NCBI GenBank assembly: GCA_046719715.1
Contig: JBDNCJ010000006.1
Location: 8,492 to 72,491, forward strand
Source: Chloroherpetonaceae bacterium
GTDB lineage: Bacteria > Bacteroidota > Chlorobiia > Chlorobiales > Thermochlorobacteraceae
Direction of reading: 5' to 3'
Length of the DNA stretch: 64,000 bases
The translations under genes were made by a program, and so were the position numbers. Positions 6,015 through 63,615 of the stretch are shown in pieces. Position 1 is the stretch's first letter. Every line of letters starts with the position of its first letter. The notes beneath the pieces are model-generated. The model was not told the origin of the DNA and did no database searches. It saw nothing but the letters and a program-made list of their open reading frames with translations.

Positions 6015-8827
<2,813 letters not shown>

Positions 8828-9075: not shown

Positions 9076-10170
9076 ATGCACAAGGCGCACTCCTTTCCAA
9101 CGACCGTTTTAACGACCGAAATCGCTACTGCACAATCCGAGCCGACCTATCCGAGCGTTGATGTAGTTATTCCTCATTTCAACGGAGCGGAAATTTTACT
9201 TGGCTGTCTTTCAACGCTCACACGAACGACCTATCCAAACTTCTCGATTACGATTGTCGACAACGGCTCAACCGACGAAAGCCTTACGCTTGCCAAAGCC
9301 CAATATCCAACGATTCAAGTGCTTCACACGGGAGCCAATTTAGGCTACGCAGGCGGATGCAACTTCGGCTTTGAGCGCACGACGGGCAAGTATGTCGTTT
9401 TCCTCAACAACGATACGGAGCAAGAACCGACTTGGCTTTCAGAACTTGTTTCAATCGCCGAACAAGACGAGCGCATCGCAAGCCTGCAACCGAAACTTCT
9501 TTCCATTCAAGCGCGCAATCGCGGCGAGCGAATCTTCGACTACGCAGGCGCGGCGGGCGGAATGATTGATAAACTCGGCTATCCTTATTGCTTAGGACGC
9601 ATTTTAGACCGATTGGAAATCGATTATGGACAATATGACATGTCTAAGCCGATTTTCTGGGTGTCGGGTGCGGCGATGTTTGCCCGACGCAGTGCGCTCG
9701 AAACGGTCGGCGTGTTTGACGAAGCGTTTTTCGCCCACATGGAAGAAATCGACCTTTGCTGGCGGCTCTGGAAGGCGGGGTTTTTGCTCTACTCGGCACC
9801 AAAATCCATCGTCTATCACTACGGCGGCGCGACGCTTTCGCAAACCAATCCACGAAAGGTCTATCTCAACCACCGAAATAATGTGATAATGCTAACAAAA
9901 AATGCCGACGCAATACGCTTATATTTGATTTTGCCTTTGCGTTTGGTGCTTGAACTTTTGTCGATGCTGTTTTACTTGAAATCCAAACGTCCTGAGGCAA
10001 GCCGAGCAGCCTTTGACGCGCTCGTTTGGAACGCCAGACATTTTTTTAATCATTTGAAAAAACGTCGCCATTCGGCGTGCCTTCGCAAAAGAAGCGACGC
10101 GGAAATTTTCAAGATATGCAACGCAGAAACCGCCGTTGTGCTTCAAGCCATTCTCGGCAAACGATATTGA
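9076..10170 (+). CDS. family 2 glycosyltransferase
   Basis: GT2 motifs VVIPHFNG, IVDNGSTDES, NLGYAGGCN and FLNNDTE. The likely start is ATG 9076; the ORF-track start at 9022 is a non-ATG codon upstream. Confidence 0.85.
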   Translation: MHKAHSFPTTVLTTEIATAQSEPTYPSVDVVIPHFNGAEILLGCLSTLTRTTYPNFSITIVDNGSTDESLTLAKAQYPTIQVLHTGANLGYAGGCNFGFERTTGKYVVFLNNDTEQEPTWLSELVSIAEQDERIASLQPKLLSIQARNRGERIFDYAGAAGGMIDKLGYPYCLGRILDRLEIDYGQYDMSKPIFWVSGAAMFARRSALETVGVFDEAFFAHMEEIDLCWRLWKAGFLLYSAPKSIVYHYGGATLSQTNPRKVYLNHRNNVIMLTKNADAIRLYLILPLRLVLELLSMLFYLKSKRPEASRAAFDALVWNARHFFNHLKKRRHSACLRKRSDAEIFKICNAETAVVLQAILGKRY

Positions 10171-36908: not shown

Positions 36909-37652
36909 CTATGATTTTAAGGTTATTAAATTTTCGGCGAAGCCGACGGCGCGCGTGGCAAGTTCCAACGCTGTTTTTGCGTCAACTTCAAATTCAACGC
37001 TCTCGTAGCGCATCTCGACGGCAAAGTCGTTGAGTTTTGACGCATCGTTTAACTCTGCTTCAACTTCAATTGCGTTTGCCGCAAGCAATTTCAAAATCTC
37101 TCCCAAATCGTGCGTTCTCGGAAAATGAACGTTCTGATGCGCAAGCACGGCTTTGAGTGCCTTCTCTACCGCTTGTTGCGCATTGAAGCCAATTCCTTCC
37201 ATATCGTTTGGGCTGACTGCAAAGAGCGTTTCGGCTCGCTCTTTATCTTTCTTGGCTTTTTCCAAGAGGGTTTTCGCAATGTCCTGATTGGTTTTCATTT
37301 CCGCTGGGTTGTTCGCCATTCGCTTTGCTGACACATCTTCGTAAAGCACAACGCCTTCGTCTCTGATGTTTCGCCACAGTCCGACCGTTACGCCCTTCAT
37401 CGCCTCGCACTCCGATTGATGCTTGACCAACAGTTGAACCCGTGCGGGCAACTTCCCCACTGCCGATTTCAATTTCATTCGTTCCTGTTTCAAATCCACC
37501 TCGTCCGAAAGCATCACGAGCACATCGTAATCGCTTTCTTCGTCGTAATCGCCTCGCGCCCGCGAGCCAAACAGCACCACCTTCACAGGCGACGACACCC
37601 GACGCACTTCGCCGAGAATTTCTTGCTCAATTTCATCTATGACGGTTTTCAT
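36909..37652 (-). CDS. nucleotidyltransferase-HEPN fusion protein, copy A
   Basis: 247 aa. N-terminal minimal NTase (VVLFGSRARGDYDEESDYDVLVML) and a C-terminal classical HEPN-like four-helix region (..QQAVEKALKAVLAH..FPRTHDLGEILKLL..FAVEMRY). Confidence 0.8.
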   Translation of the reverse strand: MKTVIDEIEQEILGEVRRVSSPVKVVLFGSRARGDYDEESDYDVLVMLSDEVDLKQERMKLKSAVGKLPARVQLLVKHQSECEAMKGVTVGLWRNIRDEGVVLYEDVSAKRMANNPAEMKTNQDIAKTLLEKAKKDKERAETLFAVSPNDMEGIGFNAQQAVEKALKAVLAHQNVHFPRTHDLGEILKLLAANAIEVEAELNDASKLNDFAVEMRYESVEFEVDAKTALELATRAVGFAENLITLKS

Positions 37653-38357
37653 GGATTCACAGTCCTTTTGTTAGCAATGCTTCAGCGAAGGCGACGGCGC
37701 GTGTGGCAAGTTCCAACGCTGTTTTTGCGTCAACTTCAAATTCAACGCTCTCGTAGCGCATCTCGACGGCAAAGTCGTTGAGTTTTGACACATCGTTTAA
37801 CTCTGCTTCAACTTCAATTCCGTTTGCCGCAAGCAATTTCAAAATCTCTCCCAAATCGTGCGTTCTCGGAAAATGAACGTCGTGATGCGCAAGCACGGCT
37901 TTGAGTGCCTTCTCTACCGCTTGCTGGCAGTGAAATCCGATTGCTTCCATTTCATTCAAGTGCTCGTTCAGCACCAATGCCGATTTCAAATCTACTTTCG
38001 CTTTTTCCAAGAGGGTTCTCGCGACGTCTTGATTGGTTTTCATTTCCGCTGGGTTATTCGCCATTCGCTTTGCTGACACATCTTCGTAAAGCACAACGCC
38101 TTCGTCTCTGATGTTTCGCCACAGTCCGACCGTTACGCCCTTCATCGCCTCGCACTCCGATTGATGCTTGACCAACAGTTGAACCCGCGCGGGCAACTTC
38201 CCCACTGCCGATTTCAATTTCATTCGTTCTTGTTTCAAATCCACCTCGTCCGAAAGCACCACGAGCACATCGTAATCGCTTTCTTCGTCGTAATCGCCTC
38301 GCGCCCGTGAGCCAAACAGCACCACCTTCACAGGCGACGACACCCGACGCACTTCGC
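36944..38357. repeat. tandem direct duplication (~670 bp x2, period 748/745 bp)
   Basis: 36944-37612 and 37692-38357 are nearly identical nucleotide for nucleotide, with scattered single differences. The exception is one divergent patch, 37176-37254 versus 37924-37999. Confidence 0.9.
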
Positions 38358-38439
38358 GAAGTATTTCCACTTCAAATCCATCAAGCGCGATTTTGTGCTC
38401 AACTTGACTATCTTCAATTCCTTTGAAAGCCAAAGCCAT
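37657..38439 (-). CDS. nucleotidyltransferase-HEPN fusion protein, copy B
   Basis: Near-identical paralogue of copy A. The ORF runs to 38487, but that ATG overlaps the thiL ATG head-to-head, so the internal ATG at 38439 (MALAFKG..) is more plausible. Confidence 0.78.
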   Translation of the reverse strand: MALAFKGIEDSQVEHKIALDGFEVEILREVRRVSSPVKVVLFGSRARGDYDEESDYDVLVVLSDEVDLKQERMKLKSAVGKLPARVQLLVKHQSECEAMKGVTVGLWRNIRDEGVVLYEDVSAKRMANNPAEMKTNQDVARTLLEKAKVDLKSALVLNEHLNEMEAIGFHCQQAVEKALKAVLAHHDVHFPRTHDLGEILKLLAANGIEVEAELNDVSKLNDFAVEMRYESVEFEVDAKTALELATRAVAFAEALLTKGL

Positions 38440-38480
38440 CTTTTTCGTTATTTTGTCTGAATATAAAACTTCCTTGTTCA

Positions 38481-39686
38481 ATGTCATTTACACGCATCTC
38501 TGAAATCGGGGAATTTGCTTTGATTGACCGACTTGCAACCCTCATTCAACCAACCGAATCTCAACTTTCCACGCTCAAAAAAGGTATCGGCGACGACTGC
38601 GCCGTCATTGAACTTCCAAACGGCAAATTGCAAGTCATTTCCACCGATTTGCTCATTGAACAGATTCATTTTGATTTACTCACCACGCCGCTCGAGCACT
38701 TGGGCGCGAAAGCCATCAGCGTGAATGTTTCTGACATTTGCGCCATGAACGCCAAGCCGCTTTATGCGACGATGAGCATTGGACTTTCCAACAATGTTTC
38801 CGTCGAGATGATTGAGCAGATTTACGAAGGCGCGACGCGCGTTGCCAAGCAATACGGCATTGCGATTGTCGGCGGCGACACGTCGGCGAGCATCACGGGA
38901 TTGGTGATTTCGGTTACGATTGTCGGCGAAGTTGATGCCGATAAAATCACCTATCGAAGCGGCGCAAAGTCAGGCGACTTCATCTGCATTACGGGCGATG
39001 TCGGACGGTCGTTTGCGGGCTTGAAAGTGCTTATGCGCGAGCGTCAAACGATGCTTGATACCTTCGCGGAAAATCCCGATATGGATAAATCCACTTACAA
39101 AGCCGATTTGTCGGAATATCAAAAAGCGATTGAAAAACACCTGCTTCCCAAAGCGCGCATTGATGCGGTCAAGTTTTTTCATGAGGCGGGAATTGTTCCA
39201 ACCTCAATGATTGATGTTTCAGATGGCGTTGCGTCTGAACTCAAACACCTCTGCCGAAATTCACAAACGGGCGCGTTGATTGAAGAATCCAAGATCCCGA
39301 TTCTTTCCGAGACGCGCGAAGTTTCGGACGAATTCGAAGATGATGGCACCACCTACGCGCTTTTCGGTGGCGAAGACTACGAATTGCTTTTTACGATTTC
39401 GCCAAACGATTTAGAAAAACTCTCTGCGTTTAAAGACATTCACATCATCGGCAAAGTGCTCGACGCTTCCCATGGCGTTAAAATGCGCGACCTCTTCGGC
39501 ACCGATATCGACTTGCAAAACACTTCTGGCTTTCAACACTTCGCCGAAGAAGACGAGCACTTTTTTGAAGACGAAGACGAACACACTCACAACGGACACG
39601 ACCACGATGCACACGGTCGTAATGGGCATAATCATAACGGACATGATGACGCGGACGAAGACATTTGGGGCGAGCGCAAAAATTAA
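38481..39686 (+). CDS. thiL: thiamine-monophosphate kinase with His/Asp/Glu-rich C-terminal extension
   Basis: ThiL blocks IGDDCAVIE, DICAMNAKP and VGGDTS are present. About 50 extra C-terminal residues read EEDEHFFEDEDEHTHNGHDHDAHGRNGHNHNGHDDADED. Confidence 0.88.
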   Translation: MSFTRISEIGEFALIDRLATLIQPTESQLSTLKKGIGDDCAVIELPNGKLQVISTDLLIEQIHFDLLTTPLEHLGAKAISVNVSDICAMNAKPLYATMSIGLSNNVSVEMIEQIYEGATRVAKQYGIAIVGGDTSASITGLVISVTIVGEVDADKITYRSGAKSGDFICITGDVGRSFAGLKVLMRERQTMLDTFAENPDMDKSTYKADLSEYQKAIEKHLLPKARIDAVKFFHEAGIVPTSMIDVSDGVASELKHLCRNSQTGALIEESKIPILSETREVSDEFEDDGTTYALFGGEDYELLFTISPNDLEKLSAFKDIHIIGKVLDASHGVKMRDLFGTDIDLQNTSGFQHFAEEDEHFFEDEDEHTHNGHDHDAHGRNGHNHNGHDDADEDIWGERKN

Positions 39687-41549: not shown

Positions 41550-42002
41550 ATGATTCACATTCAAAAAATTCTCTGCCCGATTGACTTTTCGGCGCCGTCT
41601 CGAAACGCGCTTCGCTATGCCAATGAGTTCGCCAAAGCGATGAACGCTAAAATCACCGTCATGCACGTCATACAGCCCCAACCGATTGCCGCCGACGTCA
41701 ATGTGCCTTACGTGCCGCTTGAAATTGAACTTGAAAAAAACGCAAAAGACGATTTAGCGCGAATCGTTAAAGAGGAAGTTCATGATGGCGTTTTGGTCGA
41801 GCAAGTCTTGGCATTTGGCTTGCCGTCGGATTGCGTGATTGCGCAAGCAAGAAAAGAAAACGTCGACCTAATTATTCTGGGCACGCACGGACGAACAGGA
41901 ATTTCCCGCTTGTTGATGGGAAGCACGGCGGAAAGCGTCATTCGCCAAGCCGCGCGTCCCGTTTTAGTCGTCAAAGCGTCTGAAAAAGAGTTTATTTCAT
42001 GA
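41550..42002 (+). CDS. universal stress protein
   Basis: ILCPIDFSAPS ... ILGTHGRTGISRLLMGSTAESVIRQAARPVLVV. Confidence 0.88.
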   Translation: MIHIQKILCPIDFSAPSRNALRYANEFAKAMNAKITVMHVIQPQPIAADVNVPYVPLEIELEKNAKDDLARIVKEEVHDGVLVEQVLAFGLPSDCVIAQARKENVDLIILGTHGRTGISRLLMGSTAESVIRQAARPVLVVKASEKEFIS

Positions 42003-44337: not shown

Positions 44338-47300
44338 ATGAAAAACACACGACTCTTAACGCTTCTGCTTGTGTTGCTTCTGCAGACGTTTGCTTTTGCG
44401 CAAGCACAAGAGTCAAACTCCGAGCGGACGTTTGAACAACTCTTTGCCGAAAAAAATGCACGCACGCCGGCACAGCAAAAAATTGAATCCAACATTCTGC
44501 AAAAAGCGTCGGCAATGCGCCAAGCAGGCTTGACGTCGCAAAACGCTCAAATGCGAAACGCCAGTCAGTTCAGCGATAAGCACGGCGTTCAAGTCGATGA
44601 ACAAGGCAGAGTTTATGTGTATCTGCGTCCGACGAAGAGCGCGACCTTTGAGCAACTTGAATCCATCGCGCTTCAATATGGTGCAAAACTTGGCGCCACC
44701 AATTCAGAGTTCAAAATCGTTCAAGCGTGGATTCCGTTTGATAAGTTGGAAGACGTGGCAGGACAAGCGGCGATTGCCTCTATTCAGCCCGTCTTGCGTC
44801 CTGTAACACAAGTAGGCAGTGTGATTTCACAAGGTCGTGATAAATCGCGCGCCAACACGATTCACACGCGCTACAACGTGCGCGGCGGCGGCGTGAAAGT
44901 CGGCGTGCTTTCCGACGGATGCGACGGGTTTCAACAATCCATCGCGTCAGGCGACTTGATTGGACTTCAAGTGATTGACAACAGCGCGGGCGGCGCTGAA
45001 GGAACGGCGATGCTTGAAATCATTCAGGACGTTGCGCCGCTTTCCAACCTTGCCTTTGCAACGGCATTTGGCGGTGTTGGTGGATTCATCAACAACATTC
45101 AAGCCCTTGCCGATGCGGGTTGCAAAGTCATTACCGACGACGTGCGCTACTTCGGCGAACCTGTCTATGAAGACGGTCCGATTGCGCAAAAGGTCGACCA
45201 AGTTGCAACGATTAACGACGTCGTCTATACCTCTTCGGCGGGCAATAACAACCTTGAAACCTACTCGACTGACCTCTATGTCGGAATGTCGCCCGTTACT
45301 TTACCGCAACTTGTCGGCACGGTTCACAACTTTGGCACGCAAGCCTCACCTGACGATAATCAAACATTTAGCGCACCGACTAGCGCAGGCGTCTCGGTTG
45401 AACTTCAATGGGCAGATGCCTTCGGTGCCTCGAGCAACGACTACGACCTTTACATTGTCAATTTGAATAACAACACCATCGTTGCCAGCGGCACGAGCAC
45501 ACAAAACGGCACACAAGACCCGTTGGAATTTGCCACGCTCAGCGCGGGCGGCACATTCCGCGCCGTTGTGCATTTGAAGAGCGGCAACCCCGTTCCATTC
45601 AAAATTTTCTACCGCTCGTTTGCAGGCACAGCTTCAATTAGCCTTTCATCACCAGCGGCACCGCAAATTGCAAATACGGGCGGACACGCGGGCGCAAATG
45701 GCGCATTAGGGTGCGCGGCAGTCAATGGCGGCACAACGGCGACGACAGGCTCACCATCCGCAATTCGCAATTACAGCGCACGCGGTCCTGTAACGATTTA
45801 CAACGGCGGATTCCCAAACCTTTTGGAGACGCGCAATAAGCCCGACATTACAAGTTTCGACGGCGTGCGCGTTACGGGCAACGGCGGATTCCCAACCGTC
45901 TTTGATGGCACTTCGGCGGCGGCACCGCATGTGGCGGGCATTGCGGCACTCATTCGTTCTGCAAGTCGCAACCTCACGGCGGCACAAGTGCGCAACGCGA
46001 TTCGCAACACCGCCGTGGATTTAGGCGACGCCGGCTTTGACCCCGTCTTCGGATTTGGACGCGCCGACGCATACAGCGCCGTAACTTCCGTGCTTGAAGG
46101 CACCGCGATTTATCAGAACCTAAATCTTCTGGCGATTCCCGACAATGACACGACGGGCGTCAGTGTTACGGTCAATGTCAGTGGCTCTGGCACCGTGAGT
46201 TATGTTGCCTTGAGCCTCTCGACGACGCATACGCGCTTAGGCGATTTAGTCGTTACGCTTCGCTCGCCGACGGGCACAACGCGCACGCTTGTCAATCGCT
46301 CGGGTGCAACCACAGGTGCGTCAACGGCTCAACGCGCACATATTGCCCTTGAAAATGTCGGCGCGCTTTCGATTGGCACGACGCAAACGAACGCAAACCT
46401 CATCGGCTACTTCCGACCTGTTCCTGATACATTTGCTTTCTTCGGAGAGGCAATTAATGGGAACTGGATTGTTACGGTTTCCGACCGCGCCGCAACCAAC
46501 GTCGGCGCACTTCAACAAGTTGGGTTAATCATCAACGCGACGCCGGCACTTGCCGCGCCCGTATTTGTTTCTACACCGCCGACCGTTGTTGTTGGAGGTT
46601 CAGTCTACTCTTACACGGCGATTGCGGCAGGCAATCCCACACCGACGCTCTCTCTGACGACCGCACCACAAGGCATGACGCTTAATTCTGCGACGGGCGC
46701 AATCAGTTGGAATACGCAAAGCGTTGCCTTCGGCACATATCCCGTCGTCGTTCAAGCGCAAAATTCGCAAGGCACGGTTACACAAGAGTTCAGCGTTACC
46801 GTCCGCGCCAGCGATTGGACGCGCCAAACGCCCGCCGCACAACTTGCCAACTTCCAACTCTACGAAGTCGCGCTTGCCGGCGGCAGTGATACGCTCAATA
46901 TCTGGGCGGTCGGTTCGCAATCGCTTCAATCCGGTCCGACGCGCGTCATGCGTAGTACCGACGGCGGCACGACTTGGACAAACGCCACAGGAAATCTGAC
47001 CACATCAGGCAGAGCCTTCACGATTGGTGCGGCGTCTGACCAAATTGCGGTTGTCGGCTTTGAAAACGGCACGGCGTTCCGAACCGTGAACGGCGGCACG
47101 ACTTGGTCGGCGGTTACTTGGCCTCCGCCCGTCAATACCTTTATGAACCGTGTTCTCTTCGTCAGCCCAACCGTCGGTTATGCACAAGGCGACCACGCCC
47201 CTGCGCCCAACCTTCAATGGCCCGTCTATAAAACCACTGACGCAGGCGCAACTTGGACACTCACCAATACGCCAAACGCCTTGCAACAAGGCAGCGATAT

Positions 47301-48105
47301 TGAGTATGGACAAAATTCCGGCGTGTTCTTCCTCAACGAAAACATCGGTTGGTTTACGGGCGTGATTGGCAACAGTCCGCAAACTTCGCCCAGCCGCGTC
47401 TATCGCACCACAGATGGCGGAAATTCTTGGTCATTTACGACACTCCCACAAGGCACGGGCTTCAACATCAACATTGCCGCTTTTGATGCGAATAATGTTT
47501 TCGTGATGATGCAACAAGCCGCCCCGACCGTCCGACGTTCGACTGACGGCGGCGCCACCTTCGTCAACCCGACGCCCGGACTTTCCACGATTCCCACTGC
47601 GATTGCCGCACGCCCAAATACAAACGAACTTTATGTAACCACCTCCAACAGTATTCTCAAATCCACCGACGGCGGCAATACTTGGACACCCGAAGCGATT
47701 CCTTCCATAATCACAAGCCTTAACTTCCTCATCTTCGCTAACGAGCGTCATGGTTGGGCTTGCGGCGCAAACGGTATGATTGTCAAATATCAACCTGCAA
47801 CGACTTCCTCCGTCGGCGGCGGCACGATTTCGGAGAAACCCTCCGCCTTCAAACTCATGCAGAACTATCCGAACCCGTTCAACCCCGCAACCACTATCAC
47901 CTATCAACTTGCGGCGTTCAGCGATGTGAAGTTGGAAGTCTTCGACGTGCTCGGCAGAAAAGTCGCAACGCTTGTCAATGCACGTCAAACGGCGGGCGCA
48001 CACAGCGTCAACTTCAATGCGTCGGCTTTCGCCAGCGGCGTCTATTTCTATCGCTTGCAAGCCGGTTCATTTGTTGAAACGAAGAAGATGATGCTCGTCA
48101 AGTAA
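44338..48105 (+). CDS. secreted multidomain S8 subtilisin-like protease with P-domain, Ig-like domain, six-Asp-box beta-propeller and T9SS C-terminal sorting domain
   Basis: Signal peptide. S8 residues include VGVLSDG and GTSAAAPHVAGIAALI. Proprotein-convertase P-domain-like block LGDLVVTLRSPTGTTRTLVNRSG, and an Ig-like block (APQGMTLNSATGAISWNT). Six BNR/Asp-box motifs are present: STDGGTTW, VNGGTTW, TTDAGATW, TTDGGNSW, STDGGATF, STDGGNTW. Por_Secre_tail-like end: YPNPFNPATTITYQL...GVYFYRLQAGSFVETKKMMLVK. Confidence 0.85.
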   Translation: MKNTRLLTLLLVLLLQTFAFAQAQESNSERTFEQLFAEKNARTPAQQKIESNILQKASAMRQAGLTSQNAQMRNASQFSDKHGVQVDEQGRVYVYLRPTKSATFEQLESIALQYGAKLGATNSEFKIVQAWIPFDKLEDVAGQAAIASIQPVLRPVTQVGSVISQGRDKSRANTIHTRYNVRGGGVKVGVLSDGCDGFQQSIASGDLIGLQVIDNSAGGAEGTAMLEIIQDVAPLSNLAFATAFGGVGGFINNIQALADAGCKVITDDVRYFGEPVYEDGPIAQKVDQVATINDVVYTSSAGNNNLETYSTDLYVGMSPVTLPQLVGTVHNFGTQASPDDNQTFSAPTSAGVSVELQWADAFGASSNDYDLYIVNLNNNTIVASGTSTQNGTQDPLEFATLSAGGTFRAVVHLKSGNPVPFKIFYRSFAGTASISLSSPAAPQIANTGGHAGANGALGCAAVNGGTTATTGSPSAIRNYSARGPVTIYNGGFPNLLETRNKPDITSFDGVRVTGNGGFPTVFDGTSAAAPHVAGIAALIRSASRNLTAAQVRNAIRNTAVDLGDAGFDPVFGFGRADAYSAVTSVLEGTAIYQNLNLLAIPDNDTTGVSVTVNVSGSGTVSYVALSLSTTHTRLGDLVVTLRSPTGTTRTLVNRSGATTGASTAQRAHIALENVGALSIGTTQTNANLIGYFRPVPDTFAFFGEAINGNWIVTVSDRAATNVGALQQVGLIINATPALAAPVFVSTPPTVVVGGSVYSYTAIAAGNPTPTLSLTTAPQGMTLNSATGAISWNTQSVAFGTYPVVVQAQNSQGTVTQEFSVTVRASDWTRQTPAAQLANFQLYEVALAGGSDTLNIWAVGSQSLQSGPTRVMRSTDGGTTWTNATGNLTTSGRAFTIGAASDQIAVVGFENGTAFRTVNGGTTWSAVTWPPPVNTFMNRVLFVSPTVGYAQGDHAPAPNLQWPVYKTTDAGATWTLTNTPNALQQGSDIEYGQNSGVFFLNENIGWFTGVIGNSPQTSPSRVYRTTDGGNSWSFTTLPQGTGFNINIAAFDANNVFVMMQQAAPTVRRSTDGGATFVNPTPGLSTIPTAIAARPNTNELYVTTSNSILKSTDGGNTWTPEAIPSIITSLNFLIFANERHGWACGANGMIVKYQPATTSSVGGGTISEKPSAFKLMQNYPNPFNPATTITYQLAAFSDVKLEVFDVLGRKVATLVNARQTAGAHSVNFNASAFASGVYFYRLQAGSFVETKKMMLVK

Positions 48106-48264: not shown

Positions 48265-49212
48265 TTAATAAATCGTCTTTGTGCTGATACTGCTTCGCAA
48301 CGCGCTGAGCAGTTCTTCGATGGAACGAGAGGCTGACTCGTCGCTTCGGAACACTTTTTTCTCCATCGCTTTTAAGTTGAAGGCTGGATTTTGTCCCGAA
48401 ACTTTGAAATGAAGCACGGCTGATTCAACTGTCAGACGGAGCGATTCGCGCGGAAACGGTTTGACAAGATAACGATACACGCTTCCTTCGTTAATCATTC
48501 GAATGGCTTGCTTTGCATCTTGCGAACTGGTCATCAAAATGGTAACAATGTTTGGATATTTGTCCTTAACTGCAATTAAAAAATCTCCGCCATTGATTTC
48601 GCCAAGTTCTACATCAGCGACAACAACGGCAATGTTATGTCTGGGAATCCATTCAAAGGCGTCGAGTGCATCGGTGGTAATGTGTGTTTTATACTTCGGC
48701 TCAAAGAAGGCTTTGAATTGCTCCAAGTGCTTGGGATTGCTGTCGACAAAGAGCAGTTCGTATTCCGATGTCCCCTCGCTTGGCATTTGAAGTGATGGAA
48801 TGGCGAGAGCCGACGGTCTCGATGCGGTCATAGCACGGCGCTGCTCGGCAACGGTGCAAGCAAATCGGACGGTTTCTTTGAGTTTTTCAGCATTCCAAGG
48901 TTTGTTGATATATCGGAAAATTTCGCCGACATTGACTGAATCGACAACGGCTTGCAAATCGGCGTAACCCGTCATCAAAATTCGGATTGAGTTCGGTGAA
49001 ATTTCTTTTGCACATCGCAGAAAGTCTACACCCGACATTTGCGGCATGCGTTGGTCGCTGATAACAACATCTATCGTATTCTGTTTCAAAATTTCTAACG
49101 CGTCCGCGCCGCTTTCCGCCGTGAAAACGATGTATTCATCAAAGAGAATACTGAGCGATTGCAGAATCAGGGGTTCATCATCAACGAATAACAGTTTCGA
49201 TTGGCTTGACAT
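48265..49212 (-). CDS. response regulator with two tandem receiver domains and no output domain
   Basis: REC1: LLFVDDEPL..VVISDQRMPQMSG..NKPW. REC2: LLFVDSNPK..VVVADVELGEINGGDF..LVKPF. Confidence 0.85.
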   Translation of the reverse strand: MSSQSKLLFVDDEPLILQSLSILFDEYIVFTAESGADALEILKQNTIDVVISDQRMPQMSGVDFLRCAKEISPNSIRILMTGYADLQAVVDSVNVGEIFRYINKPWNAEKLKETVRFACTVAEQRRAMTASRPSALAIPSLQMPSEGTSEYELLFVDSNPKHLEQFKAFFEPKYKTHITTDALDAFEWIPRHNIAVVVADVELGEINGGDFLIAVKDKYPNIVTILMTSSQDAKQAIRMINEGSVYRYLVKPFPRESLRLTVESAVLHFKVSGQNPAFNLKAMEKKVFRSDESASRSIEELLSALRSSISTKTIY

Positions 49213-49348: not shown

Positions 49349-50983
49349 TTATTCGGCGAAGGGTGAATCGGCGAAGGGCGAATTTACGCTTTGCTTGCTT
49401 GCGCCAACAGGGGTTGCACTTGAAATAGGCAAGGTGATGGTAAATTCCGTTCCGCGTCCGACTTGGCTTTGCACATCGATTTTCCCGCCGTGCTTTTCAA
49501 TGATTTTGTAAGCGATAGAAAGCCCAAGCCCGGTGCCTTGTCCGACGGGCTTCGTTGTAAAGAACGGGTCAAAAATTTTCTTCAAGTTTTCGGGCGGTAT
49601 GCCTTTGCCGTTGTCAATGACTTTGACCACGACGTGATTACCTTGCGTCATGGTTTTGATGGTAATTCTTCCTGTGCGCTCATCGACGGCGTGAACGGCG
49701 TTGGTGATGAGGTTCAAGAAGACTTGGTTCATTTGAGCAGGGAAGGCTTGAACCAGCGGCACTTGGGTGAACTCTTTGATGACTTGAATGCCACCTTTGA
49801 ACATGTGTCCGGCAATTTTGAGCGTCGTCTCGATATTTTCGTTCATATCAGTCGGCTTGAAGTCGGCTTCGTCCAAGCGCGAGAAGTTTTTGAGGTTGAG
49901 CACCAAGTCTTGAATTCGGTCGATGCCTTCAACCGAACTGCGAAAGAGGTTTTCGGATTCTTGCCAGATTCGGTTCTTCACTTTTTGAGCGGCGTTATCG
50001 ATTTGCGAGAGAAGCAACGCGACGTCGTTTGGACTGCCATACATGATTTGCGAGCGCAGCTTTTCGTATAGTGCGATGAGTTCTTTGATTTCTTTGTTTT
50101 TGGACTCGAGCATTTCAATGTTGTTCTTGACGAATCCAAGCGGCGTGTTCATTTCGTGCGCCAAGCCTGCGACCATTTGACCGAGCGACGACATTTTTTC
50201 CGTCTGCATCATCATCACTTCATTTTGACGCGATTCTTCTCGCAGATGCGAGAGTTCGGTAACGTCCATAACGAAGGTTACTTTTTTCGGCTTGCCGTCC
50301 GTTCCGACGATTCGCGCGGCATCGGCGAGAATGGTAAGCAGTTTTCCCGACTTGTGAACCGTGTTCCATTCCCCACGAATTTCTTTGTAGCCTGCAAGGT
50401 ATTTGTCGTGCAAATCTTTCCAGAAGTCCTTTTTATCGGGCTGAACAATCATTGTGAAGGATTTACCAATCAAATCCGCAGGTTGATAACCGTAAATGTC
50501 GGAATAGGCTTTATTGACATATTCAAAAATGCAGTCTTGATTGGTGATACAGATGCCGAGTGGTGTTGCGTCGATGATGGTTCTCAAGCGCGCTTCGCTC
50601 TGCCTAATGGCTTCGTCGACACCGGCGCCAGAGGAAATTGAAGCGGGCGCTGGCGACGGAGTAGCAGGCGCAATCGGCTGTCCGCCTTGTCGCATTTGCA
50701 GTTTTTTCAACCATTCATCGTAGCCCATGGGCGGCGGTTCGCCATTTGTAGCTGTTGGCGGAGCGTGCATCGGCGCGCCAGAGACGGGCAGTTGAAGTTG
50801 TTGCATGAATTGCTGCGTAGCAACGGAAAACTCCGACGCCAGCATACGCGGCGAAAGATTCGGCGGCAGTTGCCCCGTTTGTTGCGCCCTCATCAACTCC
50901 TCGAGCAACTCCATTTGCTCAATAGATTTCAAAGCTTTTTTGAGCGACTTTTTGATTTTTTTGTAATCGAGCATAGCTGTCAA
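49349..50983 (-). CDS. PAS-domain sensor histidine kinase (soluble)
   Basis: The N-terminus is Pro/Gln-rich and low-complexity. PAS region (ITNQDCIFEYVNKAYSDIYGY). H-box LAHEMNTPLGFV. ATPase boxes LNLITNAVHA, DNGKGIP and GTGLGLSIAYKIIEKHGG. Confidence 0.9.
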   Translation of the reverse strand: MTAMLDYKKIKKSLKKALKSIEQMELLEELMRAQQTGQLPPNLSPRMLASEFSVATQQFMQQLQLPVSGAPMHAPPTATNGEPPPMGYDEWLKKLQMRQGGQPIAPATPSPAPASISSGAGVDEAIRQSEARLRTIIDATPLGICITNQDCIFEYVNKAYSDIYGYQPADLIGKSFTMIVQPDKKDFWKDLHDKYLAGYKEIRGEWNTVHKSGKLLTILADAARIVGTDGKPKKVTFVMDVTELSHLREESRQNEVMMMQTEKMSSLGQMVAGLAHEMNTPLGFVKNNIEMLESKNKEIKELIALYEKLRSQIMYGSPNDVALLLSQIDNAAQKVKNRIWQESENLFRSSVEGIDRIQDLVLNLKNFSRLDEADFKPTDMNENIETTLKIAGHMFKGGIQVIKEFTQVPLVQAFPAQMNQVFLNLITNAVHAVDERTGRITIKTMTQGNHVVVKVIDNGKGIPPENLKKIFDPFFTTKPVGQGTGLGLSIAYKIIEKHGGKIDVQSQVGRGTEFTITLPISSATPVGASKQSVNSPFADSPFAE

Positions 50984-57497: not shown

Positions 57498-58964
57498 ATG
57501 CATACCATCTTAGTCGTTGATGATGAACCCCTTCTCGTTGAGTTCATTGAAGAATCTCTCTCTTGCGAGGGCTACCATGTTGAGACGGCGTCGGACGGCG
57601 CGAGTGCGCTAGAAATCGCACGTCAGTCATTTCCCGATATTGTTTTACTTGATTACCACTTGCCCGACATGAGCGGCATTGATGTTCTCAAAAAATTGCG
57701 CGAGCATGATGACGGCGTGCAGGTGCTCATGCTTACCGGCTTCAACGACGTGCGCACCGCCTTCGATGCTATCCGACATGGCGCGGCGGATTATATCTTA
57801 AAACCATTTGAACTTGACGCCCTTAAACTCTCGATTGCTAAGGTTGCTGAAAAAATTTCGCTTCGCAATCAAATCCGAATTTTGAGCAAAGAAACCTTGC
57901 GCCGATACACAGAATCCGAGTTTATTCTCTGCCCGTCTCCGAAAATGACGAAGGTCTATGAACTCGCGGCACAAGTCGCTCAAACCAACGACACCACCGT
58001 TCTCATTTTGGGCGAAAGCGGTTCGGGCAAAGAGCATATAGCCAAGTTCGTTCATCACAGTTCGGCAAGAAAGTCGAAGCCGTTTGTAGAAATCAACTGC
58101 GCCGCCATTCCTGAAAACTTGCTTGAAGCGGAACTCTTTGGCTACGAGCCGGGCGCATTTACCGACGCACGCAGCAAAAAAATCGGGCTGTTTGAATACG
58201 CCGACGGTGGCACGCTCTTTCTCGATGAAATCGGCGATATGCCGCTTGCCACACAAGCCAAAGTGCTCAAACTCATTGAAACCAAAACCTTTCGGCGCGT
58301 AGGCGGGTTGCGCGATATGAAAAGCGACGTGCGCATCGTTGCCGCCACGAATCGCGACCTCGCACGGCTCATCGACGAAGGCAAGTTTCGGGAAGATTTA
58401 TACTACCGCTTGCAAGTCGTTCCGATTGAGCTGCCGCCGCTTCGAGAGCGTCCCGAAGACATTCTCCAACTTGCTGATTTCTTCCTTAAAAACTTCTGCC
58501 AAACCATGCGCAAGCGCTTGGAGTTTTCCGACGAAGCCTTCGCCACGATGCTCGGCTACGGTTGGAAAGGCAATGTGAGAGAACTTAAAAACGTGATTGA
58601 ACGCGCCGTCATCATCACGCCAAATGCGGAGAAAATCATGCCTCATCATCTCGCGCTGGATAGTCGTCGCAAAGTAGCCGCCCCCATGCTATCGTCAAAG
58701 CCCGCCGCCGATGGAATGATTAGAGAAGAGCCTTCCCATCAGCCGAACTTGCCGTTTTCTTTGCGAGAGCACTTAGACAACATCGAGCGCAAATACATCT
58801 TAGACGCACTTCAAAAAACCGACGGCAACCAACTCCGCGCCGCAAAACTCTTAGGCATTGAGCGGCACGTGCTTCGATATCAGATGAAAAAATTAGGCAT
58901 TGCTCTCAAAGAGGAATCAGCACCCAGTCGCCGCGTCAGCGATGAATCTACCCACGAGTCGTAG
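57498..58964 (+). CDS. sigma-54-dependent Fis-family response regulator (NtrC-like)
   Basis: REC domain (ILVVDDEP..IVLLDYHLPDMSG). AAA+ domain (GESGSGKE, GAFTDA loop, ELFGYEPGAF). C-terminal Fis HTH (GNQLRAAKLLGIERHVLRYQMKKLGI). ATG 57498 is preferred over 57420, which overlaps the tautomerase gene. Confidence 0.92.
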   Translation: MHTILVVDDEPLLVEFIEESLSCEGYHVETASDGASALEIARQSFPDIVLLDYHLPDMSGIDVLKKLREHDDGVQVLMLTGFNDVRTAFDAIRHGAADYILKPFELDALKLSIAKVAEKISLRNQIRILSKETLRRYTESEFILCPSPKMTKVYELAAQVAQTNDTTVLILGESGSGKEHIAKFVHHSSARKSKPFVEINCAAIPENLLEAELFGYEPGAFTDARSKKIGLFEYADGGTLFLDEIGDMPLATQAKVLKLIETKTFRRVGGLRDMKSDVRIVAATNRDLARLIDEGKFREDLYYRLQVVPIELPPLRERPEDILQLADFFLKNFCQTMRKRLEFSDEAFATMLGYGWKGNVRELKNVIERAVIITPNAEKIMPHHLALDSRRKVAAPMLSSKPAADGMIREEPSHQPNLPFSLREHLDNIERKYILDALQKTDGNQLRAAKLLGIERHVLRYQMKKLGIALKEESAPSRRVSDESTHES

Positions 58965-59019
58965 CGAATGCGCGTTTCCCAAGATTCCCCCTTTTTTCTT
59001 TTCTGAAATCGTTGTTTAT

Positions 59020-59047
59020 TAGTCCGAACTTTTTAGTCCGAACTTTT
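59020..59047. repeat. perfect 14-nt direct tandem repeat TAGTCCGAACTTTT x2 in the promoter region of the large OM protein gene
   Basis: Read directly: 59020-59033 and 59034-59047 are identical. Confidence 0.9.
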
Positions 59048-59143
59048 AACACTTCTTTCAAACCGACTCAACTTGTATTGACGCACATCTACGGCTCGAC
59101 TTCGTTATATTTCTCTTTCAAACTTGAACTTCACCTTGAACTC

Positions 59144-62100
59144 GTGAAACGGTTTTCACTTTTAGCGACGATTCTTCTTTTTTCATCATCGTTTTTGTTT
59201 GCTCAACCCGAGGCTTACAGCCACCCCGAACTGAATTGGAAGACCATTGAGACCGAACACTTTACGGTTAGTTTTCATGACGGCGCGGAGCGTTCAGCGC
59301 GACTTGCGGCAAAAATCGCCGAAGAAGCGTATCCCGTCATCACGTCGCTTTACAAGCACGACCCGGGCAAAGTCAACATCGTTATCAAAGACACGGACGA
59401 CTACTCCAACGGCGGCGCGTATTTCACCGAAAATAAAATTGAGATTTGGGCACCGTCGCTCGAATTTCCGTTTCGGGGTCAGCATCAGTGGCTACGCGAC
59501 GTGATTACCCACGAATACACACACATTGTAACGCTCACAGCGGCAATGAAGGTGGGCGCGTTTATGCCTGCCGCTTTTATTCAAGCCTTTGGCTACGAAC
59601 CCACACGGCGTAATGATATTCTTTACGGCTTTCCCAATCGCCTCGTCTCTTATCCGATTGCGGGCTTCAATGTTCCGTTTTGGTTGGCGGAAGGCGTGGC
59701 ACAGTATCAACGTCCCGAACTGCGCTACGATATGTGGGATAGCCATCGCGATATGATTCTGCGCAGTGATGTCTTGGCAGGAAAAATGGCGTCGCTTTCA
59801 GAGATTTCAAATCCCGTGATTCGTCCCGGCTTTGGCGGCGAACAGTGGTATAACTACGGCTTTGCGTTCACACGTTACCTTGCGATGAAATACGGCGAAC
59901 CCTCGCTCGAACGCTTGATGAAAAATTTTGCCTCACTTTCAAATTACAACGTCGACGCCGCCCTCGAAGAAACTTACAACAAACCCGCCGAAACCATTTA
60001 CGCCGAGTGGAAAGCCTATCTTGCCGCTGACTACAAAGCCCGCACCCAAGCCATTGAAGTTCAAGCCGGTAAAATTATTGAGCACGAAGGCATGAACTTT
60101 TCGCCCATCTTTTCGCCCGACGGAAAGAAGATGTATTACATCTCCAACGGCGGCGCAACCATCGGCGGCTACGGCATTTTCGTGCGAGAATCGGGAAACG
60201 ATAGTTCGTTCAAAACCGCCAGCCGACCGACCGTCAAAGACGTTTTCGTCAATCATCGCCCTTCCGAACACGGCTTGTGCAACGCGTGCGGCTATCACTT
60301 CTCCGAAAGCAAATCGCTCTTGCGCGGCGTCTCATCACGGCTTGCGACAACGGCGGACGGCTCAAAACTCCTCTACTCCAAATACTCCGGCACAAGTTGG
60401 AAAGTCCAACGCTACAACGACCTTTTCATCTACGACATCAAAAAAGACGAAGAAACCCGCCTCACCTACCAAAAGCGATTAGAAACGCCCGCACTCTCGC
60501 CCGATAACAAAACCTTCGTTGCGGTTGCGCAAAAAGACGGCACGGAAAATCTCGTTGAAGGAAACTTCACGACCGATACGCTCCGCCAGAACTTGCGCAC
60601 GCTCACGCAGTTTAAGAACGGCGAGAAAGTACTCACCCCGATTTACTCCGCCGACGGCTCAAAAATTTTCTTCGCACTCGGCTTTCGCAATCAACGCCGA
60701 TTGATGTCGCTCGATAGGACTTCGGGAGCAATCTCGCCCCTGACCGAAGCGATTGACGAAAGAAATCCTTACCTCACGATTGACGAGCGCGACCTTTCGC
60801 TCACGCCCGACGGCAAATACCTGCTTTACGCCTCAAACCCGACGGGCATTTTCAACCTTTATCGCTTGAACCTTGAAACGCGGCAATCGGAACAACTGAC
60901 CAATGTACTCACGGGCGCATTTATGCCGTCGATGAATCCATCAGGCAAAATCGCTTACGCGCATTTCACGCACACGGGCTACAAATTGGCGTTGCTCGAC
61001 ACGATTCAGCCCGTTCAAAATCCCAACGCGGTATATCGCAAAGAGCCAACGCGTCTGACCTTCGAAGGTGCAACAGCCGATGCGCCACAACTGGCTTCGC
61101 TTTCCTCACGACTTACCGATGTGCCAACAGAGCGCGATTCGCTTTACAAATCTTTAATTGAATACGACGATACCACGCTCCCGCAATACGAGGCGCGCGA
61201 ATACACGAAACTGTTTTCAACCATCAACATCGTTCCGCTTGTTCGCTTCGATGCTTATACCAAACCACAAGGCGGATTTTGGCAAGATGCTTGGCGGGCG
61301 GCAAAGTTCGGGGCGGCGTTCAACTCGTCGGAAGTGTTGGGTCAGTTTAATTTGTTCGGCGTGTTTGCTTTTGCACCGGGAAGTGGCTTCGCCGATGGCG
61401 CACAAAATCCCGTTACCAAAATTTTTGAAATGGAACGCGACGCCTATCTCTCGTTTGAATACACCGACCAAACGATTCTCCCCGCCTCGATGCTTCCGAA
61501 ATTCTCGCTCGATGTGTTTCACATCACGCGCAACGTGCCCGAAGCTGGTCAGTTAGGCGGATATAGAACCGATTTCAGTCCTGCGGATAGTGCATTTTAC
61601 AATGTCTCGTTTGCCGCCACGCAGTTTGACCTTTCGCTTCGATTCCGTATTCCGATTAACAACCTTTTCTTTCAAGCCAGCTCGTTTCGCACGACGTTCT
61701 CGCTTGGTATTTACAGTTCGAAAATCAACTCATTTTTTTGGGAGCCCGTCGGTCAAACCCTTCCGGCAAGTAGCGATAACTACTTCATCGGACGAAGCGC
61801 GTCGCTCTTTTGGAAGTTGGATTTACGCGCCCGCTCGTTCAACCAAAACATTAACCCTGTTGGATTTCTCTCGCGCGTGCGATTGGATTACGAAAACAGC
61901 AAACTGCAAACCGGAAACGAATTTGTAGAATCCAACGGCACGTTCCGACCGGTGTATGACACATTTGATTTTGTTCGCTTGACCGCCGACCTAAACTACT
62001 ACTTCCCGCTTCCGACTTGGAATCCGCGCTTTCAGCACACGCTTTCGCTTCGCACCTTTGGCGCGTTCAACTTCGGCAACGAAACGGATTTCTTCTTTCA

Positions 62101-62563
62101 CAATTTCATTTCTGGCTTAATTGGCATGCGCGGCTATGAGTTCTTCGCTATTGGCGGCGACCGTGCGGCGTTTGCTCATCTTGAATACCGCGTCCCGATT
62201 TTTACCAATCTCGATGTGCAGTTCTTCCATCTCTACTTCAATCATCTTTATTTCTCGACTTACTTCGACATCGGTGCGGCATGGGGCGCGAAAATCCCCT
62301 CGCTCAATAATTGGCGCAAAGACATCGGCTTCGAACTTCGGCTTGCCTCAAATTCTTTTTATGCCTTTCCGACCAGCATTTTCATCAGCGCAACATATGG
62401 GTTAGACCGATTCGACCAGCCGCTCCGTCGTGGCTTTGAACAACAAGGCGGACAAAATTTTGTAACCTACGGACGCGAATGGCTCTTTCACTTCGGCATG
62501 CTCTTCGACTTCGATTTTCTCGCCGACGAAACCGTTCGCGGCGCGCGCCTTCTGCTTCGTTAA
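59144..62563 (+). CDS. large exported protein: HEXXH metallopeptidase-like module + PD40/TolB-like beta-propeller repeats + Omp85-type beta-barrel
   Basis: A GTG start at 59144 gives the signal peptide VKRFSLLATILLFSSSFLFAQ. HEXXH in VITHEYTHIV. PD40-like repeats: FSPIFSPDGKKMYYIS, ALSPDNKTFVAV, IYSADGSKIFFAL, LSLTPDGKYLLYAS, MNPSGKIAYAH. The C-terminus carries the surface-antigen barrel motif GMRGYEFFAIGGDRAAFAHLEYRVPIF. Confidence 0.72.
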   Translation: MKRFSLLATILLFSSSFLFAQPEAYSHPELNWKTIETEHFTVSFHDGAERSARLAAKIAEEAYPVITSLYKHDPGKVNIVIKDTDDYSNGGAYFTENKIEIWAPSLEFPFRGQHQWLRDVITHEYTHIVTLTAAMKVGAFMPAAFIQAFGYEPTRRNDILYGFPNRLVSYPIAGFNVPFWLAEGVAQYQRPELRYDMWDSHRDMILRSDVLAGKMASLSEISNPVIRPGFGGEQWYNYGFAFTRYLAMKYGEPSLERLMKNFASLSNYNVDAALEETYNKPAETIYAEWKAYLAADYKARTQAIEVQAGKIIEHEGMNFSPIFSPDGKKMYYISNGGATIGGYGIFVRESGNDSSFKTASRPTVKDVFVNHRPSEHGLCNACGYHFSESKSLLRGVSSRLATTADGSKLLYSKYSGTSWKVQRYNDLFIYDIKKDEETRLTYQKRLETPALSPDNKTFVAVAQKDGTENLVEGNFTTDTLRQNLRTLTQFKNGEKVLTPIYSADGSKIFFALGFRNQRRLMSLDRTSGAISPLTEAIDERNPYLTIDERDLSLTPDGKYLLYASNPTGIFNLYRLNLETRQSEQLTNVLTGAFMPSMNPSGKIAYAHFTHTGYKLALLDTIQPVQNPNAVYRKEPTRLTFEGATADAPQLASLSSRLTDVPTERDSLYKSLIEYDDTTLPQYEAREYTKLFSTINIVPLVRFDAYTKPQGGFWQDAWRAAKFGAAFNSSEVLGQFNLFGVFAFAPGSGFADGAQNPVTKIFEMERDAYLSFEYTDQTILPASMLPKFSLDVFHITRNVPEAGQLGGYRTDFSPADSAFYNVSFAATQFDLSLRFRIPINNLFFQASSFRTTFSLGIYSSKINSFFWEPVGQTLPASSDNYFIGRSASLFWKLDLRARSFNQNINPVGFLSRVRLDYENSKLQTGNEFVESNGTFRPVYDTFDFVRLTADLNYYFPLPTWNPRFQHTLSLRTFGAFNFGNETDFFFHNFISGLIGMRGYEFFAIGGDRAAFAHLEYRVPIFTNLDVQFFHLYFNHLYFSTYFDIGAAWGAKIPSLNNWRKDIGFELRLASNSFYAFPTSIFISATYGLDRFDQPLRRGFEQQGGQNFVTYGREWLFHFGMLFDFDFLADETVRGARLLLR

Positions 62564-63615
62564 TGTTTAATTCCATTTCTATGAAAGCCTCTCTTCTCGC
62601 TTTGCTTCTTGCTGTTTCCCTCTTCAACGCTTACGCCGAAGACCCTAAAAACGCCTTGAAGCGCGAACGCTTGATTTCGCTCGTCTCCAACGATTCAACG
62701 CACAAGCATGCGGAAGTGGGAATCGCAGTGCTTTCTCTGAACCGTCCGCTCGTGATTGACGGGCAGTATATTGCTTACAACGATGCAGGAATGATTTCGC
62801 CTTCCATGCCGACGCGGAAACTGCGCACGCCAGTTATCGGTGCGGTTTTTTCAGCCATCGTGCCGGGCGCAGGTGAGTTTTATGCGGAAAGTTATTGGCG
62901 TTCCGCGCTTTTCTTCGCCGCCGAAGTGGCACTCTGGGCGACGGCGATTCACTATCAAAACAAAGGGCGGCAAGGTGAGCGCGATTTTGTCGCCTTTGCC
63001 GACGGGCTTGCGCCTAACGGAGCAGGTTTGGCAAATGACGGACGCGCACGCTGGGACGCCGTCCGCTTCGCAGAACGCATGTCGGAAATTTATACGACGG
63101 AACGCTTCCTCAATTCGGGGCTTGTTTCAAACGCCAACCAAATTCGGCAACTTGCCGCTGAACTCGGCACTGAACAACGCCTGAACGAAATCCGCAATCG
63201 CGACTATCGTTTCCTCAATGCTTTTGAGCGCATTGCCGTCTCCGCCGCAAACAACGCTACGCTTTCGCATACGCTTCCGCCCTACGGCGACCAACAGTAT
63301 TACGAACTCATCGGCAAATACAGCGAGTATGCGATTGGTTGGTATGATTACGACGTTTCACGAATGAACAATCGGTTTGAAATCCACTCCGCGACTTACT
63401 TGCAATACGCTTCGATGCGCGGCATGGCGAATCAAAATCTGAAAACGGCGTCGAACTTTTTCTCGCTCGTCGTGCTTAACCACGCGCTTTCCGCCGTCGA
63501 TGCGCTCGTCGCCGTCAATCAATACAACGACCGCATTCGCACTTCGCTTCAATTCCAGCAAGACGCCATGACGCAGACGATTTATCCATCAGCCTCAGTC
63601 GCCGTCTCGTTTTAG
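62563..63615 (+). CDS. hypothetical exported/membrane protein
   Basis: The ATG at 62563 overlaps the upstream stop (TAATG); ATG 62581 is an alternative start. Signal peptide MKASLLALLLAVSLFNAYA. One internal hydrophobic hairpin (VIGAVFSAIVPGAGEFYAESYWRSALFFAAEVALWATAI). Confidence 0.5.
   Translation: MFNSISMKASLLALLLAVSLFNAYAEDPKNALKRERLISLVSNDSTHKHAEVGIAVLSLNRPLVIDGQYIAYNDAGMISPSMPTRKLRTPVIGAVFSAIVPGAGEFYAESYWRSALFFAAEVALWATAIHYQNKGRQGERDFVAFADGLAPNGAGLANDGRARWDAVRFAERMSEIYTTERFLNSGLVSNANQIRQLAAELGTEQRLNEIRNRDYRFLNAFERIAVSAANNATLSHTLPPYGDQQYYELIGKYSEYAIGWYDYDVSRMNNRFEIHSATYLQYASMRGMANQNLKTASNFFSLVVLNHALSAVDALVAVNQYNDRIRTSLQFQQDAMTQTIYPSASVAVSF

Follow-up and report, generated by a model that had tools for sequence, protein, structure and literature searches.

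What does an outer-membrane barrel do when it carries its own peptidase and β-propeller, and with which genes does it belong? Omp85 proteins form the core of outer-membrane biogenesis, and outside BamA, TamA, TpsB and PlpD we know of no Omp85 subfamily with an assigned function. The question is raised by a stretch of 64,000 nucleotides from a Chloroherpetonaceae bacterium (GCA_046719715.1, contig JBDNCJ010000006.1, forward-strand positions 8,492 to 72,491), referred to here as the window, in which positions 57498-63615 are filled by three open reading frames (ORFs) on the same (+) strand: a gene for a sigma-54 enhancer-binding protein (EBP), a large gene and a partner gene. A preliminary description of this DNA had set out the three ORFs correctly, with the EBP upstream and an exported protein downstream. 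Here we report that the large protein is a further member of a catalogued and functionally unstudied Omp85 subfamily, and that the large and partner genes stand, in most relatives, at the distal end of a conserved cluster with porU and porV, genes of type IX secretion (T9SS). This conservation of gene order is the most interesting outcome of the analysis and offers a concrete, testable lead. The annotation of the window is corrected accordingly: the large protein is neither TolB nor BamA, nor is it demonstrably under the control of sigma-54.

The large protein joins a peptidase, a propeller and a barrel

Three collections of relatives underlie the counts given below: 44 homologues at 37-80% identity for family-level Pfam counts, an alignment of 60 sequences for residue invariance in the large protein, and 80 related loci, cited by L numbers, that were fetched for counts of motifs and neighbours. 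Fold assignments rest on Pfam, AlphaFold2 and Foldseek. The AlphaFold2 model of the large protein, for which the alignment served as input (mean pLDDT 79.1, pTM 0.78), contains an α/β domain at residues ~30-300, a propeller at ~306-620, a linker with one conserved helix and ~16 long strands at 685-1121.

The α/β domain is modelled with a pLDDT mostly of 65-93 and corresponds to the Pfam family Peptidase_MA_2, which scores 29.0 bits on the window protein against a cut-off of 32.4 and passes that cut-off with 33.6 bits in the L006 homologue. All 44 family members match the same model, the best of them at 1.2e-12. The motif HEYTH, already remarked upon in the preliminary description, lies at 59510-59524. 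Its residues H123, E124 and H127 (HEXXH), together with W180, A182, E183 and G184, are invariant in the 60 sequences, and HEXXH and WxAEG are both present in 80 of 80 loci, separated by 60 residues in 77 of them. The glutamate of WLAEG (E183; 59681-59695), 60 residues past the first His of HEXXH, is a good candidate for the third zinc ligand. Because all the catalytic residues are intact, the large protein is very likely, judging from its sequence, an active envelope protease.

The propeller gives a clear domain signal. Repeats of the PD40 type, of which at least five had been claimed from the translation, were recovered at 2e-18 and fold into about six blades in the model; PD40 is matched by 44 of 44 family members, Foldseek ranks TolB structures first in the PDB (E 8e-11 to 5e-9), and precomputed Pfam matches to Tricorn_N and Tricorn_2nd occur in the family. 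Within the linker that follows, L671, D675 and D676 are nearly invariant in the alignment. A search for POTRA domains (PF07244) found no match in the window protein or in the 44 relatives, and the model has the linker and one helix ahead of the barrel.

The barrel strands (residues 685-1121) have a pLDDT mostly of 70-95, and Foldseek matches them to BamA as it occurs in BAM complexes (chain 7bnq_A with E 1.5e-7, and also 8qp5_A and 8q0g_A). For the window protein the sole barrel signal among hidden Markov models (HMMs) is the NCBIfam BamA model over the C-terminal region (4.5e-4); PF01103 (Omp85) has no match at E<=0.01 in this protein and matches 11 of the 44 relatives, at best with 5.2e-9. 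The sequence GLIGMRGY at 62114-62137, which falls inside the barrel motif quoted earlier, includes an M-R-G-Y of the loop-6 (L6) type, and G991, G994, G997 and Y998 are invariant in the 60 sequences. A motif (V/I)RG(F/Y) in loop 6 is the hallmark of Omp85 proteins. The form M-[KR]-[GAS]-Y, conserved in the loci examined, sits between strands 11 and 12 and by that position would correspond to it. Taken together, HMMs, model and Foldseek bear out the three-part architecture that had been proposed. Its HMM support is uneven for the window protein by itself, where the peptidase is sub-threshold and PF01103 is silent, and is firm at the level of the family.

The architecture has a place among the known Omp85 proteins

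The combination had been presented as an uncharacterised architecture, which holds as to function; the architecture itself has been catalogued. Heinz and Lithgow distinguished ten subfamilies within the Omp85/TpsB superfamily, among them "WD40-Omp85", or WD40-like (Heinz & Lithgow 2014, Front Microbiol 5:370; PMC4104836). They found its propeller closest to TolB and likened the arrangement to a BamA-BamB fusion, and their supplementary Phyre table lists for its members a BamA barrel (4k3b or 4c00), TolB (2w8b or 2ivz) and, third, an aminopeptidase (1z5h, 4kxd and 4fgm, which are of M1 type, or 3qnf) (PMC4104836). The large protein has the same three parts, a TolB-like propeller taking the place of POTRA domains, and differs in what can be said about it, in that the catalogue gives no function, partner gene or T9SS context (PMC4104836). 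Judged against the published description, the large protein is a WD40-like Omp85 with propeller, M1-like region and barrel. From the accession prefixes, the listed members presumably include proteins of Chloroherpeton thalassium and Rhodothermus marinus. In the literature searched for a functional study of WD40-Omp85 proteins, of a T9SS with Omp85 and PD40, of DUF5683 or of Chloroherpeton with T9SS, none was found. The family is large: it comprises more than 2000 clusters when grouped at 90% identity, and at least 594 species-level genomes contain relatives.

Two familiar names were tried for the protein and rejected. With TolB of the Tol-Pal system it shares the six-bladed PD40 propeller, its best structural match; it differs by an added peptidase and barrel and has no tolQRA-pal genes nearby. 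The NCBIfam TolB model (TIGR02800) reaches 1.7e-14, but its 53.6 bits fall far short of the cut-off, 343, and the database name 'biopolymer transporter Tol' given to this family describes the propeller alone. With BamA and TamA it shares the 16-strand barrel fold (7bnq_A, E 1.5e-7) and an L6 motif, here M-R-G-Y, and it differs in its lack of POTRA domains and in scoring 18.7 bits on the BamA equivalog model, whose cut-off is 297. In a related genome a canonical Omp85 protein (871 aa, PF01103) is encoded separately, so the large protein is not the housekeeping BamA.

Two further systems resemble it in part. In PlpD and other type Vd (patatin-POTRA-Omp85) proteins an enzyme is likewise fused N-terminally to an Omp85-type barrel, whereas the large protein has neither POTRA nor patatin and its passenger consists of peptidase and propeller. 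The S9 oligopeptidases, and tricorn protease taken together with the M1 aminopeptidase F3, likewise combine a substrate-gating or channelling β-propeller with a peptidase; they are cytoplasmic or soluble and have no membrane barrel, and the motif here is that of a zinc HEXXH...E enzyme, not of a serine peptidase.

A partner protein is encoded directly downstream

The preliminary description had paired the large gene closely with an exported downstream protein, and this pairing is widespread: a homologue of the partner lies directly downstream of the large gene in 58 of the 66 loci with enough flank. The partner consists of a signal peptide, a disordered stretch of ~60 residues, a helical bundle and a C-terminal β-hairpin (residues 319-342). 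Its AlphaFold2 model, built with database homologues, has a pLDDT of 81 and exceeds 90 in the bundle; a Foldseek search of this fold against the PDB gave no significant match (best E 0.22). The sole family signal is to DUF5683, below cut-off at 7.8e-5, over a helical hairpin that contains PGAGE. The invariant polar residues in the alignment (E99, H230, Q238, E242, K246, H301 and D307) suggest a defined site. In 48 of 56 homologues the partner ends in Phe after an alternating hydrophobic strand. Outer-membrane β-signals have this pattern, an alternating strand closed by Phe.

At L001, from a 78%-identical Chloroherpetonaceae relative, the partner position is occupied by a DUF2887 protein (9.2e-59; 9267-10136, +), which points to local rearrangement.

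In most relatives, large and partner genes extend a conserved porU-porV cluster

Clustering of the flanking ORFs brought out three extra conserved genes, and in relatives these stand on the same strand in the order porU, porV, M6i, large gene, partner. PorU was identified with NF033707 (3e-119) and Peptidase_C25, and PorV with NF033710 (250.1 bits, cut-off 250) and PF19572. M6i is a T9SS-dependent M6-like inactivated metalloprotease (T9SSA_dep_M6i; NF052323, 911 bits where the cut-off is 600), a protein of ~1000 aa that carries FG-GAP repeats along with a type A sorting domain. At 59 of 68 loci it lies immediately upstream of the large gene; out of 65 loci, 57 have both M6i and PorV, and 53 have PorU as well. 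Precomputed Pfam annotations of L081 and L082 independently give the same order, in which the M6-like and large genes abut. The cluster occurs in Ignavibacteria, Kryptonia, Rhodothermia and other lineages, and its order is kept though the large proteins (from Rubricoccaceae, Kryptonium, Ignavibacteria and others) are only 36-62% identical, which argues for selection on the gene arrangement. The earlier account of the gene context had missed these informative porU-porV-M6-like neighbours, which are present in most relatives. In the literature searched we found no paper that links the large protein or its partner to T9SS, nor was the linkage with porU and porV found described in the searchable literature; it is new here.

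Outside Chlorobiales, the loci without M6i are also without the partner, and the large genes there may be solo paralogues. At L047, L058, L062, L065 and L077, from Ignavibacterium and its relatives, the large gene stands without the porU-porV-M6-like genes and without the partner, and this suggests two paralogous lineages of the large gene in Ignavibacteria, one clustered and one solo.

The T9SS attachment complex of Porphyromonas gingivalis (PorU-PorV-PorZ-PorQ) is a further system for comparison. The likeness is that relatives encode the pair after porU, porV and a propeller protein bearing a C-terminal domain (CTD), an order that resembles a module of sortase, shuttle and accessory protein. 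The difference is that the window has no adjacent T9SS gene and that the pair matches no curated T9SS component model: NCBIfam T9SS models run on the large protein and the partner gave nothing beyond a chance-level PorE match in the PD40 region (E 0.0096). The organism does have T9SS cargo, since a type A sorting domain is recognised at the C-terminus of the ORF at 44338-48105 (+) (TIGR04183; 44.9 bits, cut-off 23). That ORF encodes 1255 aa, with a subtilisin/mycosin-like region and a Ycf48/glycosyl-hydrolase-like propeller region.

Genes for the lipopolysaccharide (LPS) export permease, lptF and lptG, lie convergent on the opposite strand, 1-2.5 kb downstream of the pair, at L009, L081 and ~20 other loci, many of them from Ignavibacteria. 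In Porphyromonas it is anionic LPS to which T9SS cargo becomes attached, and the proximity of lptF and lptG could be relevant or coincidental.

A proposed T9SS-linked protease module at the outer membrane

On balance we think it somewhat probable that the large protein and its partner form a two-gene envelope module, an outer-membrane-anchored zinc protease with a partner, that has a processing role linked to T9SS. The 16-strand BamA-like barrel would anchor the large protein in the outer membrane, and a TolB-like propeller with a putative HEXXH...E zinc metallopeptidase, its catalytic residues intact, would replace the POTRA domains. By analogy with other Omp85 proteins, these N-terminal domains would most likely be periplasmic. 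The propeller may filter substrates or give them a platform to dock on, like the propellers of tricorn and the S9 peptidases, and the protease would work on the inner side of the outer membrane, cutting substrates that are unfolded or are peptides. The helical partner, co-translated with the large protein, may dock on the seam of the barrel through its β-signal-like C-terminal hairpin ending in Phe. From the position of the pair as the distal part of the porU-porV-M6-like cluster in most relatives, we infer that its likely role would be processing or clearance tied to the sorting or attachment of type IX cargo, for example of cleaved CTDs or stalled cargo. The part of this picture that the analysis establishes comprises domain composition, the conserved catalytic and L6 motifs, and gene order.

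A more specific form of this proposal, which we advance tentatively as the less expected case, is that the pair might be unrecognised accessory components of T9SS sorting and attachment in the Fibrobacterota-Chlorobiota-Bacteroidota (FCB) lineages outside Bacteroidia (Ignavibacteria, Kryptonia, Rhodothermia and Chloroherpetonaceae). The large protein could then act as a periplasmic protease station at the outer membrane that processes or clears T9SS cargo or cleaved CTDs beside PorU and PorV, its partner held at the Omp85 seam by the β-signal-like hairpin.

Several observations pull away from a T9SS-linked protease. There is no adjacent T9SS gene in the window or at the Chlorobiales loci L001-L004 and L083, so the link to T9SS is drawn for the window protein from its relatives; in Chlorobiales the pair is separated from the T9SS genes and sometimes, as at L001 and L083, the large gene from its partner too. 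The large gene occurs without the partner at L001, L047, L058, L062, L065, L077 and L083, and one Chloroherpetonaceae metagenome-assembled genome (MAG) has the two genes under widely separated locus tags (RMI34_03915 and RMI34_01355). The WD40-like accessions listed by Heinz and Lithgow presumably come also from myxobacteria and other Proteobacteria, which to our knowledge have no T9SS; the whole family therefore cannot be T9SS-specific. The periplasmic orientation is an assumption. For the peptidase, the 60-residue gap between HEXXH and Glu exceeds that of thermolysin or M1 enzymes, and the whole-model Foldseek list against the PDB is dominated by propellers. Because sequence profiles searched against PDB sequences returned nothing meaningful for the N-terminal domain and found no BamA for the barrel, the evidence that sequence alone gives for these folds is weak.

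Alternative functions of the barrel

The best surviving alternative is an auxiliary BAM/TAM-like insertase that inserts dedicated outer-membrane proteins, its propeller a BamB-like platform, its protease removing failed substrates and the downstream protein a client or subunit. The BamA-like barrel with its conserved L6 motif would fit such a function, as would the resemblance of the subfamily to a BamA-BamB fusion (Heinz & Lithgow, PMC4104836), the alternating hydrophobic strand with terminal Phe at the end of the partner, and the presence in the same cluster, in relatives, of the gene for PorV, itself an outer-membrane barrel. The absence of POTRA domains and the BamA equivalog score of 18.7 bits against 297 argue against it, the separate canonical Omp85 of a related genome (871 aa, PF01103) takes the housekeeping role away from the large protein, and sequence by its nature cannot imply insertase activity. 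We regard an insertase as unlikely.

Less likely still is self-export in the manner of PlpD (type Vd), by which the barrel would move its own protease and propeller to the cell surface to act as a secreted or surface protease. The order of enzyme, flexible linker (pLDDT <50 at 636-661) and Omp85-type barrel is that of PlpD, and self-export has been raised as a possibility for enzyme-Omp85 fusions (Heinz & Lithgow, PMC4104836). Against it stand the lack of a POTRA domain (PF07244) between passenger and barrel and the neighbouring T9SS, which in relatives already offers a route to the surface, one that the upstream M6-like protein uses through its CTD. As far as we know, moreover, the T5d passengers described so far do not resemble one of 600 residues that includes a closed propeller, and propellers of the PD40/TolB type are typically periplasmic.

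The sigma-54 activator is a lineage-specific neighbour

The preliminary description had joined EBP, large gene and partner into one possible regulatory unit. The EBP itself looks competent from its sequence, with Response_reg (4e-30), Sigma54_activat (2.7e-69), AAA_lid_14 and HTH_8 domains in Pfam, and all NCBIfam EBP models score under their equivalog cut-offs on it. Its sigma-54 contact loop reads GAFTDA, a variant of GAFTGA (~58152), and this is conserved in L002. The GAFTDA variant is listed as functional, that is compatible with activation, in DVU2106 of Desulfovibrio vulgaris (PMC4641369).

The spacer between the EBP and the large gene is a less promising target. Its single GG dinucleotide belongs to no GG-N10-GC element in 58965-59143, and our search thus agrees with the earlier failure to find one by eye; neither TGG-N9-TGC nor TGGCAC-N5-TTGCW (<=3 mismatches) was matched in it. 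On a hand-weighted consensus score the best -24/-12 candidate in the spacer reaches 14.5 of 21.7, a value attained by 0.6% of window positions. An EBP homologue precedes the large gene in 1 of 80 loci, L002, a MAG whose large protein is 91% identical and therefore too close to carry independent weight. In other Chlorobiales the upstream gene encodes an aminotransferase (L001, 78% identical), PucC (L003 and L004) or a fatty-acid desaturase (L083). Of the trio whose conservation had been suggested as a check, the large gene and partner are thus conserved together, and the EBP is found upstream only in L002.

A sigma-54-controlled operon in which the NtrC-type activator drives the large gene and partner is the least supported of the alternatives and very improbable: the EBP and large gene are adjacent on one strand, a terminator is not predicted between them, the REC-AAA+-HTH architecture of the EBP is complete and its loop is compatible with activation, and the arrangement recurs in L002, but the spacer has no GG-N10-GC and a best score that is ordinary for the window, the recurrence has no independent weight, the EBP is absent at L001, L003, L004, L083 and 75 other loci, and a better sigma-54-like site lies elsewhere, at 51127-51112 (-), upstream of a kinase/regulator operon. 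We conclude that the EBP is a lineage-specific neighbour, not a demonstrable regulator of the pair; the preliminary description had been right to be cautious about the link.

That better site, TGGCACATGGTTTGCC, matches the sigma-54 consensus more closely than any other position in the window; it is intergenic and precedes a histidine kinase gene (49349-50983, -) followed by a double-receiver regulator gene (48265-49212, -), and it is a more plausible target for an EBP than the large gene. A further intergenic sigma-54 candidate, TGGCATTTGGCTTGCC at 41809 (+), stands before a gene resembling that for the acetyl-CoA carboxylase beta subunit.

Gene layout and further features of the window

Around the large gene, the window encodes the EBP, the partner and a tautomerase. 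Coordinates are collected in Table 1.

Table 1. Positions in the window of the three genes, the spacer and the parts of the large protein
Feature	Position	Strand	Remarks
NtrC-type response regulator/sigma-54 EBP	57498..58964	+	488 aa; adjoins the large gene, not conserved with it
Spacer	58965..59143	+	179 bp; between EBP and large gene
Large gene	59144..62563	+	GTG start at 59144; 1139 aa
Sec signal peptide of the large protein	59144..59203	+	VKRFSLLATILLFSSSFLFA, then QPE; cleavage site predicted from sequence
MA-clan (gluzincin-like) metallopeptidase domain	59216..60058	+	residues ~25-305; Peptidase_MA_2 1.1e-6
TolB/PD40-type β-propeller	60059..61003	+	residues ~306-620; ~six blades; PD40 2e-18, AlphaFold2 strand pattern
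Linker	61004..61195	+	residues ~621-684; pLDDT <50 at 636-661; conserved helix 663-672
16-strand Omp85-superfamily β-barrel	61196..62509	+	residues ~685-1122; AlphaFold2 and Foldseek
Partner gene	62581..63615	+	344 aa; alternative overlapping start at 62563

The linkage of large and partner genes in a tight operon is certain; a literal overlap of stop and start is not certain here. The overlapping TAATG described earlier does provide a start at 62563, yet a Chloroherpetonaceae hypothetical protein 100% identical to the partner (P0121, 344 aa) begins at the ATG at 62581, 17 nt past the stop of the large gene. In the related locus L081 the two genes overlap by 11 nt.

The region of the GTG start of the large gene is conserved in L002, the closest relative, and the consensus of the family near the cleavage site is ..AQE..HPEL in the 60-sequence alignment. 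With the predicted cut by signal peptidase I (..LFA/QPE, 59201-59209), the mature large protein would begin with Gln. The same ..AQ stands at the predicted cleavage site of many Ignavibacteria partner homologues in the alignment. An N-terminal Gln recalls the 'Q-rule' reported for Bacteroidetes (PMC5837995).

The spacer contains a tandem direct repeat of 14 nt at 59016-59043 (TTATTAGTCCGAAC / TTTTTAGTCCGAAC). As a conserved operator it was rejected, being a clean indel that is missing from the 91%-identical L002, and it is probably a recent slippage duplication. Alignment with L002 shows that the spacer keeps conserved blocks that include TTGACG...TATATT. The two halves of this block are 22 nt apart, so we make no promoter claim for it, and a sigma-70 consensus scan upstream of the large gene gave no promoter match.

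Elsewhere in the window, a gene of ~745 bp is duplicated in tandem at 36909-38487 (-). The two ORFs, 36909-37652 and 37657-38487, are 92-96% identical in nucleotides over ~590 nt, at a spacing of 745-748 nt.

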